From: Burkholderiales bacterium
Lineage (GTDB): Bacteria > Pseudomonadota > Gammaproteobacteria > Burkholderiales > SG8-41
Length of the DNA: 64,000 nt
Direction of reading: 5' to 3'
Assembly: GCA_019744975.1 (NCBI GenBank)
Contig: JAIETP010000015.1
Location: 56,929 to 120,928 of the forward strand
A program made the translations under genes and the position numbers. Within the stretch, counting starts at the first letter, position 1. Every line of letters starts with the position of its first letter. The notes beneath the pieces were generated by a model, which saw only the letters and a program-made list of their open reading frames with translations, searched no databases and was not told the origin of the DNA. Positions 1,153 through 60,347 of the stretch are shown here, one piece after another.

Positions 1153-1180
1153 GTAAGTATTTGTTTTTATTAAATAATTT
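1153..1180 (+). repeat. AT-rich dispersed repeat, copy (variant)
   Basis: gtaagtatttgtttttattaaataattt. It shares tatttgtttttatt with the copies at 49235 and 54825. Confidence 0.7.
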
Positions 1181-1213
1181 GGCAATCCGCCGTTAATACC
1201 CACACGCCGCGCA

Positions 1214-1241
1214 TTGAAAACCGGCAATTCATGCCCCATTT
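1214..1241 (+). promoter_or_regulatory. Sigma32 (RpoH) heat-shock promoter of clpB
   Basis: TTGAAA (1214-1219), a 14-nt spacer, then CCCCATTT (1234-1241). This matches the consensus TTGAAA-N13/14-CCCCATNT and lies about 35 nt upstream of the clpB ATG. Confidence 0.65.
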
Positions 1242-1276
1242 CGTGAATATCCGTATTCACTGGCAATGGAATTCCA

Positions 1277-3877
1277 ATGCGTTTTGACAAATTCACCACC
1301 AAGTTCCAGCAGGCCTTCGCAGACGCGCAAAGTGCTGCCGTCGGCAGCGACCACGCCTATATCGAAGCGCAGCACCTGCTGCAGGCACTGCTCAACCAGG
1401 CCGACGGCGGCACCGCAGCGTTGCTGCAGCATGCGGGTGTCAATGTTTCCGCGCTTCGGGGCGGCCTCAAAACCGCGATCGAACGCCTGCCCAAAATCGA
1501 GGGCAGCGGCGGTGAGGTCACCATTTCCCGCGATCTCGGCAACCTGCTGAACCTCACCGACAAGGAAGCGCAGAAACGCGGCGACCAGTACATCGCCTCC
1601 GAGCTGTTCCTGCTGGCGCTGACCCAGGACAAGGGCGAAACCGGTCGGATGCTGAAACAGCATGGCGGCGACCGCGCCCACATCGAGCAGGCGGTCAATG
1701 CCATGCGTGGCGGCGAATCCGTCGCCAATCCGGAAGCGGAAGGCAGCCGCGAAGCGCTGAAAAAATACACCACGGACCTGACCGAACGCGCGCGCGCTGC
1801 GAAACTCGATCCGGTGATCGGCCGCGACGACGAAATCCGCCGCGTGATACAGATCCTGCAGCGCCGCACCAAGAACAATCCGGTGCTGATTGGCGAGCCC
1901 GGCGTCGGCAAAACCGCCATCGTCGAGGGCCTGGCGCAGCGCATCGTCAACGGCGAGGTGCCGGAAACGCTGAAAAACAAACGCGTGCTGTCGCTGGACA
2001 TGTCCTCGCTGCTGGCCGGCGCCAAATACCGCGGTGAATTCGAGGAGCGGCTGAAGTCGGTGCTCAAGGAAATTTCACAGGATGCCGGGCAGACCATCGT
2101 TTTTATCGATGAACTGCACACCATGGTCGGGGCCGGAAAGGCCGAGGGCGCCATTGATGCCGGCAACATGCTGAAGCCGGCGCTGGCGCGCGGCGAACTG
2201 CATTGTGTCGGTGCGACCACGCTCGACGAATACCGTAAATACATCGAAAAAGACGCCGCCCTTGAACGTCGCTTCCAGAAAGTACTGGTCGATGAGCCGT
2301 CGGTGGAGGCGACCATCGCCATCCTCCGCGGCTTGCAGGAAAAATATGAATTGCACCACGGCGTTGAAATCACCGATCCGGCGATTGTCGCCGCCGCCGA
2401 ACTGTCGCACCGCTACATCACCGACCGTTTCCTGCCGGACAAGGCGATCGACCTGATCGACGAGGCGGCGTCGCGCATCAAGATGGAAATCGATTCCAAG
2501 CCGGAGGTGATGGACAAACTCGACCGGCGTCTGATCCAGCTCAAAATCGAACGTGAAGCCATCAAGAAGGAAAAGGACGAGGCGTCACGCAAGCGTCTTG
2601 ATTTGCTCGAGACCGAGATCAAATCGCTGGAGCGCGAATACGCCGACCTCGACGACATCTGGAAATCCGAAAAAGCACAGGTGCAGGGCAGCGCGCACAT
2701 CAAGGAAGAGATCGAGCGAGTGCGCGCCGACATTGTCCAGCTGCAGCGCGCCGGAAAACTCGACAAGGTGGCCGAACTGCAATACGGAAAACTGCCGCAA
2801 CTCGAGGCGCAACTAAAGCAGGCCGAGACCGCCGGTGCAACCGAAACCAGACACCGGCTGCTGCGCACCCATGTCGGCACCGAGGAAATCGCCGAGGTGG
2901 TATCGCGGGCGACCGGCATCCCGGTATCGAAAATGATGCAGGGCGAGCGCGAGAAACTGTTGAAAATGGAAGAGCGCCTGCACGCCCGCGTCGTGGGTCA
3001 GGACGAGGCCGTGCGGCTGGTGTCCGATGCCATCCGGCGCTCACGCTCCGGTCTGGGTGACCCGCAACGGCCCTACGGATCCTTCCTGTTTCTCGGTCCG
3101 ACGGGGGTCGGCAAGACCGAGCTGTGCAAGGCATTGGCGGAGTTCATGTTTGACGCCGCAGACCATCTGATCCGCATCGACATGTCGGAATTCATGGAGA
3201 AACATTCCGTGGCCCGGCTGATCGGCGCGCCACCCGGCTACGTGGGCTACGAGGAGGGCGGCCATCTGGCGGAAGCGGTACGCCGCAAACCCTACTCGGT
3301 GATCCTGCTCGACGAAATCGAAAAGGCGCATCCGGACGTGTTCAACGTGCTGTTGCAGGTGCTGGATGACGGTCGCATGACCGACGGTCAGGGCCGCACG
3401 GTCGATTTCAAGAACACGGTGATTGTGATGACGTCCAATCTCGGCTCGCAGATGATCCAGGGCATGCAGGGTGATGATTACCAGGTCGTCAAGCTGGCGG
3501 TACTCGGCGAGGTCAAGGCCCATTTCCGCCCTGAATTCATCAACCGCATCGACGAGATCGTGGTGTTCCATGCGCTCGACGAGAAACACATCAAATCGAT
3601 CGCGCGCATCCAGCTGGCCTATCTTGAGAAACGCCTGACGCAGATGGAGATGAGACTTGAAATCAGCGATGCAGCCCTGAAGGTAATCGCCGAGGCGGGG
3701 TTTGATCCTGTCTATGGCGCGCGGCCGCTGAAGCGGGCCATCCAGTCGCAGATCGAAAACCCGCTGGCCAAACACATCCTCGAAGGCCGGTTCGGACCGA
3801 AAGATGTGATCCGCGTTGATGCGAAAAGAGGCGGCATGAGCTTCGAGAGGGCTGAAGCTGCCGCGGCAGTGGCATGA
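1277..3877 (+). CDS. clpB: ATP-dependent chaperone/disaggregase ClpB
   Basis: 866 aa with two AAA+ modules (GEPGVGKT and GPTGVGKT Walker A motifs), a coiled-coil middle domain, and an unmistakable ClpB sequence throughout. Confidence 0.98.
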
Positions 3878-58375: not shown

Positions 58376-59361
58376 AGCGTATCGACGTTCACAACCACGT
58401 GATCCCCGAGACCATCGTCAAGGCGATGCAGGCGAATCCCGTTTACAACACGAAAATCGAGGGTGAAGGCCACAACCGCGTGTTCATCCGCGGCAAGGTG
58501 CGTTTTCCGTTTGAGGCGGAGTTCTACGACGCCGATGCCAAGCTGGAGTCGATGGATCGCAAAAAAATCGACATCGCGTTCATCTCTCCCGGTCCACAGA
58601 CGTTTTTCTACAATCTGAAGGATGAGCTCGCGATCCAGACCGCGCGCATCGTCAATGAAGGCATTGCGCAAATGGTTGCCGCCAAACCGGACCGGCTGCG
58701 CGGCATGGCGACGCTGCCGATGCAGCACCCGGAGGCGGCCATCGCCGAACTGGAACGCGTGGTCAAAGAATATGGCTTCAAGGGTGTGGAGCTCGGTACC
58801 GCGATCGGTGAGGAGGAACTGGCGGATCCGAAATTCCGTCCCGTGCTGAAACGCATTGAAGAGTTGAAAGTCATGATTTTTGCCCATCCCAATACCCAGG
58901 GCGCGGCGGGGCGGCTCGACTGTTATTACCTGATGAACCTGATCGGCAATCCGCTGGACACCACGATCATGGTCGGCAAACTCATGTTCAGCGGCGCGCT
59001 GGATGAACTGAAAGACCTGAAAATCCTGCTCGCCCACGGCGGCGGTTTCCTGCCGTACCAGATCGGCCGTTTTGTACACGGCCACAAGGTGCGTCCGGAT
59101 ACCGCCGAGTTCACCCGATCAGACCCCATGCGGATGCTGAAACGTTTCTGGTTCGATGCGCTGACCCACAGCCCGCAGGCGATCCGCCACCTGATCGACG
59201 TCGTCGGCTCGGAGAACGTGGTGCTGGGTACTGATGCGCCCTTCGACATGGGTGAGATGGCGCCGGTCGACCGTGTGGAACTGGTGCCGGGGCTGACACA
59301 GCAGGAACGCGAAAACATTTACTGCAAGGCGGCCACGGCGCTGTTCAACGGCAGGATTTGA
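58372..59361 (+). CDS. Amidohydrolase_2 (ACMSD / non-oxidative decarboxylase-hydratase) family metalloenzyme
   Basis: MKRIDVHNHVIP.. metal-binding HxH motif and ..ILLAHGGG.. Its ATG overlaps the lysR stop (ATGA). Confidence 0.8.
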   Translation: MKRIDVHNHVIPETIVKAMQANPVYNTKIEGEGHNRVFIRGKVRFPFEAEFYDADAKLESMDRKKIDIAFISPGPQTFFYNLKDELAIQTARIVNEGIAQMVAAKPDRLRGMATLPMQHPEAAIAELERVVKEYGFKGVELGTAIGEEELADPKFRPVLKRIEELKVMIFAHPNTQGAAGRLDCYYLMNLIGNPLDTTIMVGKLMFSGALDELKDLKILLAHGGGFLPYQIGRFVHGHKVRPDTAEFTRSDPMRMLKRFWFDALTHSPQAIRHLIDVVGSENVVLGTDAPFDMGEMAPVDRVELVPGLTQQERENIYCKAATALFNGRI

Positions 59362-59430
59362 TACTGCACATCGTGGACGAGACACCCGGCATGCGGCGCG
59401 TCGCATGCTAGGATAAAACCAGACTATTCA

Positions 59431-60291
59431 TTGTTTGCGGGGCATGCCGTGCCTTTTCATCGTTTTGAGGATTTCGAAAGCAATTACCTGACGCCACACC
59501 TGTCCACCGGCAAGGCGCCGGTGATCGACGGGCGTTACATGTACTTCTGTATGTTGCATAAAAACGCAGGCACCGGATCGGAACTGCACTATCACCCGAA
59601 CGAACTGCTGATTTTTCCGGTGCGCGGCAGGATCAATGGCATCGTCGGCAAGGACCGACGTGTGGTGTCTCCCGGCACCTTTGTCCATGCCCCGGCGTAT
59701 GCGCGTCATTCAATGAAGGCCACCGAGGATGGCAATCTGCAATACCTCTATATCAAGGACAAGACCTGGACCGTGGTCGGCCTTGCCGAGGACGAAGCAG
59801 TACCCGATCAGGCGATGACCATCGCCGAGGTCAACAAAAAATACAGGGTCGGGGACAAAGACAAACACCAGAAAACCCAGGGCAAATCGCAGGCCATCAT
59901 CGAAGGCCTGCCGGTGTGTTTTCATCCCATTCTTGACAGCCTTGATGCGCCGCGGCGTTCCGGGCGTTGCGTGAACTGGATTGAGGGTGAGCGCCTGGCC
60001 TTCGGCCTGTTTGAAGTCCCGGCAGGTTATGACGAACCTGAGGCGGTTTCGGCACGGGAAATGTTTATTTATGTACTCAGCGGCAAAATCGACGCCCAGG
60101 CCGGCAAAGATAAAAAATCCATCAGCAGCGGCGACATCGTCCATGTGCCGCGTGGTGAACGTTACCGGCTGCAGGTGCGCAGCCATGCACGTTATGCCAT
60201 GGTCTGTTCAACACCCTATCTCGAAGGCCGCATCGACAACATGACGCCGGAACAGGCCGAGCAGGCCCGCATCAACATGAAACCGAATTAG
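59431..60291 (+). CDS. Bicupin-domain protein
   Basis: Two cupin barrels (..HYHPNELLIFPVRG.. and ..FIYVLSGKIDAQAG..VHVPRGERY..). The start is uncertain (TTG at 59431 or a downstream GTG). Confidence 0.65.
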   Translation: MFAGHAVPFHRFEDFESNYLTPHLSTGKAPVIDGRYMYFCMLHKNAGTGSELHYHPNELLIFPVRGRINGIVGKDRRVVSPGTFVHAPAYARHSMKATEDGNLQYLYIKDKTWTVVGLAEDEAVPDQAMTIAEVNKKYRVGDKDKHQKTQGKSQAIIEGLPVCFHPILDSLDAPRRSGRCVNWIEGERLAFGLFEVPAGYDEPEAVSAREMFIYVLSGKIDAQAGKDKKSISSGDIVHVPRGERYRLQVRSHARYAMVCSTPYLEGRIDNMTPEQAEQARINMKPN

Positions 60292-60315
60292 CCAGCCCAC
60301 AAAATTCAGCGCCAC

Positions 60316-60347
60316 ATAAATATTTATTTAAAATCAATAACTTACAG
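60316..60347 (-). repeat. AT-rich dispersed repeat, variant copy
   Basis: Its reverse complement reads ctgtaagttattgattttaaataaatatttat. Confidence 0.7.

Follow-up and report, generated by a model that had tools for sequence, protein, structure and literature searches.

Within the 64-kb window analysed here (the whole stretch of 64,000 nucleotides, from contig JAIETP010000015.1 of an uncultured Burkholderiales bacterium), a short AT-rich repeat occurs in eight strong copies with the consensus TAAnTAwTTGwTTTTATTGAtAwTTt. These 30-bp repeats are a real, conserved family. To judge from their consensus, the copies are probably high-affinity binding sites for integration host factor (IHF), or for a very close DNABII relative of it. 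They most likely represent, then, a known kind of element that has become unusually sharp and is limited to one lineage of uncultured freshwater Burkholderiales. The window is part of a betaproteobacterial chromosome, has a GC content of 59.6%, and includes the housekeeping genes clpB, trpS and truB. The analysis establishes the motif with its statistics, conservation, freedom of orientation, separation from promoters and association with sigma-54 promoters; which protein binds the sites, and whatever follows for function, is inferred. Positions in the motif are numbered along the motif strand, position 0 being the first T of the TTG anchor. The anchors of the eight strong copies lie at 1161+, 10722+, 17100+, 18703+, 26406+, 40329-, 49254- and 54834+.

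The repeats were noticed in an earlier, sequence-only reading of the window, and all eight copies that it called strong are where it placed them. Its finer observations also hold: the copy at 10712..10744 and the reverse complement of 40307..40339 are identical at 30/33 positions, the copies at 49235 and 54825 have the 17-mer ATTTGTTTTTATTGATA in common, and TTGATTTTATTGA is common to four copies. Its contention that this identity exceeds shared AT-richness is borne out by composition-matched controls. With at most one mismatch allowed, the 14-mer core TTGWTTTTATTGAT is matched seven times, versus 0.01 expected from dinucleotide shuffles. The excess persists when the DNA is shuffled inside 40-bp blocks, which preserves the AT islands (9–10 observed, 0–0.9 expected). 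Scored with a position weight matrix (PWM) against an AT-rich background, the eight copies reach 21–32 bits; the next best position in the window scores 14.9. The window contains 14 AT-rich islands (at least 84% AT over 25 bp), each 26–55 bp long, and eight of them carry the full motif. Strong sites average about one per 8 kb, at least seven of the eight strong copies are intergenic, and inverted pairs of the motif are lacking. A logo built from 53 PWM-selected sites reads T-A-A-n-T-A-w-T-T-G-w-T-T-T-T-A-T-T-G-A-t-a-w-t-T and amounts to some 34 bits of information when the per-position values are summed. Conservation fades outside -10..+21, beyond which there is no palindrome or conserved sequence, and the flanks differ between copies. 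No published description of the motif family was found, the exact motif matching just one unrelated primer, and Rfam returned no match at the sites, only two tRNAs elsewhere in the window.

Canonical IHF sites combine four elements: the sequence WATCAA; a TTR separated from it by 4 bp; a pair of base steps, usually AA, that receive the intercalating prolines and have a 9-bp spacing; and an A-tract in the other half (PMC1874591; bioRxiv 10.1101/382655). All four are present in the motif, and in register. Its left part, YAA(-7..-5)-N4-TTGwTW(0..5), spells WATCAAnnnnTTR, the IHF consensus, when read from the opposite strand. That strand has WATCAA with TTR 4 bp on; it also has two ApA steps separated by 9 bp, and its 5' half contains an A-tract. 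We counted these elements in 128 sites, comprising 8 from the window, 45 orthologous and 75 metagenomic. TTR, seen as YAA on the motif strand, is present in 8/8, 43/45 and 74/75 of these, respectively; in the logo its first position is T in 43 and C in 9 of the 53 sites, followed by A in 53/53 and A in 52/53. WATCAA, the reverse complement of TTGwTW, is perfect in four of the eight window sites and has one mismatch in the other four, and 126/128 sites overall depart from it at one position at most. The TT steps at 0/+1 and at +9/+10, 9 bp apart, each occur in more than 90% of sites. Positions +14..+19 are ~90% A+T, and runs of at least three Ts are found in 107/128 sites. The A-tract of lambda-type attP (AAAAAA-gcattgct-TATCAA-tttg-TTG, N8 spacing) stands at the same offset as this T-tract. 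Composition alone yields a perfect IHF core in 0.95% of shuffled 36-mers, and YAANNNNTTGATW occurs nine times, versus 0.98 expected. The direct repeat of TTGAT-like half-sites 9 bp apart, which the sequence-only reading had taken for the core of the motif, is real; in our view the half-sites mark the pair of ApA/TpT steps at which an IHF site is kinked.

Weaker members of the family are informative in the same respect. Three of the six remaining AT islands hold only the left part of the motif, at 5645..5657 (-; TAAATATTTGATT), 50575..50587 (+; TAACTTGTTGATT) and 60332..60344 (-; TAAGTTATTGATT). In each, the perfect core is kept and the rest is lost. The IHF consensus is the feature common to strong and weak members, because the weak ones keep exactly the IHF core. 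These three correspond to proposed weak relatives at 5633..5660(-), 50571..50599(+) and 60316..60347(-), all of which have a perfect YAA-N4-TTGATT core; a fourth, at 36881..36906(-), is one mismatch off. Others proposed at 20816, 9651, 6713 and 44181 have low PWM scores and find no support. The site at 60332 is antisense between two plus-strand genes, and the same variant is conserved in the 97%-identical relative L207. A further weak site, at 36798..36810 (-; TAACTATTTGTTT), has a PWM score of 12.4.

Comparison with related genomes indicates that the sites are under selection at the DNA level. The nearest genomes are uncultured freshwater ‘Burkholderiales/Betaproteobacteria’ metagenome-assembled genomes (MAGs), whose proteins are 77–93% identical to that encoded by window positions 17120-17947 (loci L001-L024); the next relatives are Gallionellaceae-like genomes, at ~60%. 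In L001-L024, four window sites keep their positions although the flanking DNA has diverged, and in related MAGs altogether, five strong sites recur at orthologous positions, the check proposed when the family was first described. The 10715-10743 site is kept at its orthologous position (~3600) in L001-L004, L006, L007 and L011. The site in the leader of a phosphatase gene (17120) is recognizable in 23/23 clade loci examined, with a PWM score of at least 15 in 9/23, and a -10 box, TTTGnTATGAT/TATCAT, is conserved upstream of the gene in these loci. Alignment of the trpS-leader site (anchor 18703), which recurs in L103, reveals an invariant AA....TTG.TTTTATT.A. The 49254 site is conserved in L162 (82% nucleotide identity), and its core is kept in L207. 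Within truB, the DNA CAAnnnnTTGATTTTA is kept in 15 orthologues, synonymous positions included; the coding sequence has no insertion at the site, TruB matching its profile without one, and third codon positions in genomes of the clade are ~70% GC. For these reasons, the truB copy was written in place by point changes, which argues against mobile insertion.

Two further observations concern the phosphatase site. In L001 (~9930-10000) it is partly duplicated in tandem (ttgattttattgtgatttattgtgattttattac), which suggests slippage within the motif. In the outgroups L025 and L026 (65–68% protein identity), a degenerate remnant (TGATTTTTCAAG / TGATTTTCATTGG) and a TATGAT-type -10 box occupy the same place upstream of the gene, and the site may therefore predate the sharp consensus.

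The full sites occupy varied positions with respect to genes. The one at 1154..1182 (+), a TTGTTT site with a TTAAAT variant, is centred ~85 bp upstream of the inferred start of a sigma-32-like clpB promoter (1214-1241, TTGAAA-N14-CCCCATTT). The site at 10715..10743 (+) fills the 57-bp gap between convergent genes for a TctC-family receptor (+) and a rhodanese-domain protein (-). The site at 17093..17121 (+) lies in the leader of a gene for a 3',5'-nucleoside bisphosphate phosphatase, reaching its ATG (17120), which has no Shine–Dalgarno sequence; a conserved extended -10 box, TGGTATGAT, lies ~17 bp upstream of the site at 17068..17076 (+). The trpS leader contains the site at 18696..18724 (+), ~75 bp upstream of the trpS ATG (18799); a conserved TAAAAT -10 box (18650-18655) precedes this site by ~40 bp. 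The site at 26399..26427 (+) lies within the truB coding sequence, where AT-rich codons specify the residues IQILDFIDKN; a second YAA-N4-TTGATT core follows 20 bp downstream, at 26419..26431 (+), also within truB. On the minus strand, the site at 40308..40336 precedes ygfZ (39335-40234, minus strand) in a gap between divergent genes, and that at 49233..49261 fills a 32-bp gap between co-directional genes, abutting the ATG (49234) of a Gfo/Idh/MocA oxidoreductase gene that again lacks a Shine–Dalgarno sequence. The site at 54827..54855 (+) is antisense to both of its minus-strand neighbours, which encode an oxidoreductase (54855-55964) and a TctC receptor (53826-54803). Copies had been reported inside two coding sequences; the one in truB stands, and the one at 50575, within an acyl-CoA-dehydrogenase-like open reading frame (ORF) call, 50453-51919(-), is plausible. 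At the phosphatase and oxidoreductase starts, the site appears to replace the ribosome-binding region (17093-17122 and 49231-49261); other nearby genes have clear GGAG-type Shine–Dalgarno sequences, for example GGAGAA before the start at 54803.

Among 59 sites for which both neighbouring genes were called, 20 lie between convergent genes, 17 are sense, 12 lie between divergent genes and 10 are antisense. This near-random orientation favours action on DNA over action on RNA; antisense cases are confirmed, by Pfam-verified genes or independent gene calls, at 54834 and 60332 in the window and in L206 and L207. The sites are not promoters themselves, because separate, conserved -10 boxes lie upstream of them at the phosphatase gene and trpS. 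Scans for intrinsic terminators and promoters gave no excess over shuffles, and the earlier opinion that no single promoter or terminator role fits the family holds good.

IHF is classically located between an enhancer and a sigma-54 promoter, and in related contigs some of the sites lie directly upstream of such promoters. We scanned 466 kb of motif-bearing, GC-rich contigs for the sigma-54 promoter sequence TGGCAC-N5-TTGCW, with at most one mismatch. Of 17 good promoters, four lie within 100 bp of a motif copy, versus 0.6 expected (Poisson p = 0.003), and both of the perfect ones are included. In all four the site is upstream of the -24 box, 6–30 bp away, in either orientation, and in three of the four it is directly adjacent. 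These near-perfect promoters (TGGCAC-N5-TTGCT) and their motif copies are found at L145 4863-4917, L148 275-330, L195 805-858 and L129 3977-4060; the genes driven by the four are fliL, a flgE/K-like hook (hook/rod) gene, an NrtA-like binding-protein (transporter) gene, and a gene for an unknown secreted protein. The first three, of flagellar and nitrate-transport type, fit the usual range of sigma-54 targets, to which flagellar and nitrogen-assimilation genes belong. No sigma-54 promoters occur beside the window’s own sites, the examples coming from other contigs only. This placement gives the IHF reading independent support.

If the sites are what they seem, an IHF dimer would sit asymmetrically on each ~30-bp site, its two prolines would enter the two kink steps, and the DNA would fold into a U-turn. 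The sites would thus act on DNA as fixed architectural points, spaced at about one strong site per 8 kb. Some may work with promoters, either from upstream, as at the sigma-54 promoters of related contigs and the sigma-32-like promoter of clpB, or from just downstream, as at trpS and the phosphatase gene. Those between convergent genes, inside operons and inside truB would serve nucleoid or topological organization rather than local control.

Several findings weigh against this interpretation. A tblastn search of the window and of 2.17 Mb of fetched loci, a part of the genomes concerned, found neither ihfA nor ihfB. Half of the sites have A rather than T at the third position of WATCAA (the TTGTTT variant). 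Positions -3, -2, +6..+8 and +11/+12 are conserved and are not accounted for by the four IHF elements; the excess comes to ~8 bits, by a rough estimate from per-position information, and the total of ~34 bits is far above what is needed to specify a few hundred sites. The excess is also apparent when sites are selected by the 9-base core alone: positions +6..+10 still have one base in 56–78% of sites and are 85–92% A+T, with nothing comparable among outgroup matches. Applied to lambda-type attP, the clade PWM misses H' as well as H1 and H2; the assignment to IHF therefore rests on consensus elements and not on a transferable matrix. IHF is widespread, whereas the sharp motif is limited to a lineage: 846 kb of Gallionellaceae-like outgroup loci contain no extended sites, with the bare core just twofold enriched, and five relatives with the same operon and 83–91% protein identity (L201-L205) have neither sites nor AT islands. 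In L207, which keeps the weak 60332 site, the 54834 site is present only in degenerate form. The sigma-54 association, finally, rests on four cases. Together, these points leave room for a modified IHF, for a second factor, or, less likely, for an uptake-type drive. The lineage might have gone as far as to evolve an over-specified ‘super-site’ for a modified IHF, or for IHF plus a second factor, that pins plectonemes or sets topological domain boundaries at ~8-kb spacing. We think this rather unlikely; were it so, the ~8 extra bits and the lineage restriction may be its signatures, in sites that overwrite even Shine–Dalgarno regions and the truB coding sequence.

The same positions -3, -2, +6..+8 and +11/+12, the limitation of the sharp motif to one lineage, and the failure of the PWM to find lambda H' would also suit a different, lineage-specific DNA-binding protein, such as a reader of tandem TTGAT-N4-TTGAT or a second protein sharing the site with IHF. 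This, too, seems unlikely to us. The half-sites are unequal: the first TTG is invariant, whereas the G of the second survives in 46% of sites selected by the core and in 77% of those selected by PWM. The core-only relatives retain the IHF part rather than the repeat. IHF predicts both the T-tract and the invariant YAA across a 4-bp gap, which a tandem-repeat reader would not explain, and placement beside sigma-54 promoters is a hallmark of IHF. A DNA uptake signal, accumulated by biased uptake and recombination and tolerated mainly between genes as AT-rich DNA, would likewise be lineage-specific, very uniform, over-specified and orientation-independent. It could account for a copy that arose by point changes inside truB, and for turnover between close relatives (54834 versus L207). 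Known uptake sequences occur at about one per kb, however, as against one per 8 kb here, and inverted pairs are missing. On an uptake reading, moreover, chance would have to supply all four IHF elements exactly, with a probability of ~1% or less, and enrichment directly upstream of sigma-54 promoters would not be expected. Nothing speaks positively for an uptake signal, and with at least seven of eight strong copies intergenic, we consider it very improbable. The window contains no competence genes.

The remaining possibilities concern RNA, silencing and mobility. The phosphatase and oxidoreductase genes (17120 and 49234), both verified, begin right after the motif without a Shine–Dalgarno sequence, at two genes the site follows a conserved -10 box, and there is a mild excess of sense over antisense copies (17 versus 10). 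These facts would fit an AU-rich RNA element, placed in leaders and between cistrons, that drives Shine–Dalgarno-independent translation or RNA processing. As a general explanation such a 5'-untranslated-region element fails: copies antisense to both neighbours are common (window 54834 and 60332; L206 and L207), about as frequent as sense ones, and others lie between convergent genes or upstream of promoters (clpB and the sigma-54 cases). We hold it to be very unlikely as the function of the family, although some sites may have such an RNA effect locally, as a by-product. Nucleation of an H-NS/MvaT-like silencer, favoured by the likeness of the 3' half, TTGATAAATT / TTGATAATTT, to the H-NS motif tCGATAAATT as previously quoted (8–9/10 positions), is more improbable still. 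The likeness (TTGATAwTTt versus tCGATAAATT) covers just the less conserved half of the motif and leaves the invariant YAA-N4-TTG part, indeed all of YAA-N4-TTGwTTTTATT, unexplained. The islands, 26–55 bp of AT-rich sequence in 60% GC housekeeping DNA with no extended AT-rich tract around them, are too short for a spreading filament, and sites occur in essential genes and leaders (truB and trpS). Of the wider suggestions made for these repeats, it is ‘another global DNA-binding protein’ that gains support, IHF having been named only as a candidate for chromatin immunoprecipitation (ChIP); the H-NS, uptake and 5'-leader ideas come out weak. Least credible, we believe, is a small mobile repeat, of the kind of miniature inverted-repeat transposable elements (MITEs) or repetitive extragenic palindromes (REPs), or a promoter or UP element, although the copies are dispersed, similar and intergenic, and their AT-rich stretches resemble -10 boxes. 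Terminal inverted repeats are absent, as had been remarked before in setting MITEs aside, and so is any palindrome; conservation fades outside -10..+21; the truB copy involves no insertion; and L207 holds a degenerate version of the 54834 site and not an empty one. Site strength is graded. As for a promoter, separate conserved promoters lie upstream, orientation is about random, the promoter scan is not enriched over shuffles, and the would-be -10 has no conserved final T.

Other candidates were tried and rejected. A Bacteroidetes-type or other sigma promoter does not fit, since the organism uses Shine–Dalgarno sequences, -10 boxes lie separately upstream, and the TATAAs of the motif has no conserved last T. 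Against a leaderless-mRNA promoter stand the poor quality of the hexamer (TATTGA) found where one would be expected ahead of the ATG, and the location of most copies away from start codons. Hairpin terminators were predicted no more often than in shuffles. The consensus sequences of Fur, FNR/CRP, OmpR/PhoB-type regulators, ArcA, Fis, Lrp, DnaA and Tus/Ter do not fit the motif.

Compared with known IHF sites, those of lambda attP (H' and H1) have the same core, TTR spacing, two ApA/TpT steps 9 bp apart and A/T-tract register, and canonical sites are likewise asymmetric, ~30 bp long and found upstream of sigma-54 promoters. They differ in that here T and A share the third core position about equally, only A/T bases stand between the kinks, and there are extra, near-invariant bases: TTTTATT between and around the kinks, and TA at -3/-2, in a motif of ~34 bits. 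The RIB/RIP elements of Escherichia coli have an IHF site in the L linker of BIME-1 and are often located at the 3' ends of transcription units (Boccard and Prentki 1993, cited in PMC3333891). Like them, the present sites are dispersed, repeated, extragenic and of IHF type, and many abut stop codons or lie between convergent genes. Unlike them, they have no flanking REP palindromes, are standalone rather than mosaic, and occur in some leaders and inside a gene. In E. coli, IHF binds ~1040 regions, and less than 10% of its motifs are upstream of operons (PMC3333857); in GC-rich Caulobacter it gives 430 strong peaks, some of them intragenic and without effect on transcription (PMC11150451). These occupancies, determined by ChIP-seq, resemble the sites described here in density (one per 4–9 kb) and in being mostly off promoters and sometimes intragenic. 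The motifs in those organisms are much more degenerate, whereas the consensus here is sharp and belongs to one lineage. With the DNA uptake sequences (DUS) of Neisseria and the uptake signal sequences (USS) of Pasteurellaceae, the sites have in common that they are lineage-specific, uniform, over-specified and free in orientation, and can be written into coding sequence. They differ from these in being ~8 times rarer, almost all intergenic and unpaired, and in bearing the full IHF signature.

If these are IHF sites, they provide a map, drawn from sequence only, of a major DNA-bending protein in an uncultured, GC-rich lineage, and almost every AT-rich island in the window would be accounted for. 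They would form a natural set of very strong, all-element sites, whose extra conserved positions could reveal the requirements of an optimal site. That they recur regularly away from promoters is relevant to the question of whether IHF sites organize supercoiling domains; a simulation study proposes that IHF pins plectonemes and so divides DNA into topological domains (PMC9519438). Were the ‘super-site’ interpretation true, chromosome architecture would be readable directly from sequence. For annotation, the practical consequence is that such islands should not be labelled promoters, terminators, mobile elements or H-NS targets.

A few features of the window and of the searches may be added. 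About 45 of 120 exact 20-mer matches to the motif come from low-GC contigs (GC <0.45; metagenome loci L086, L090, L091, L096 and others), and may represent either chance in AT-rich genomes or the existence of the motif elsewhere. A subgroup of repeats once attached to the family, TACTTTGAAGAT / ATTTTGACGAT (TTTTGACGAT), is without the core, and we set it aside. Within it, the ‘GATTTT(T)GACGAT’ pair at 44110-44142 and 62586-62618 has a 12-mer in common, also without the IHF core, and is found upstream of genes for phosphoenolpyruvate carboxykinase and a CobW-family GTPase; the 44110 copy is inside an imperfect inverted repeat (CCCGATTTT...AAAATCCGGG). Genes for TctC/‘Bug’ periplasmic receptors, which are typical of Burkholderiales, number four in the 64 kb (5518-6621, 6678-7709, 9490-10692 and 53826-54803). 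Several of these are over-extended by first-start ORF calls, and the last has its true start at 54803, with a signal peptide, and not at 54833. ORFs of rpsO and pnp type, named from their translations alone, lie 3' of truB. A tandem pair of tRNA genes, tRNA-Arg(TCT) and tRNA-His(GTG), occupies 30197-30379, with no motif copy close by. At 46455-48244 (-), a umuD-like (Peptidase_S24) and umuC-like (IMS) pair constitutes a translesion polymerase operon.

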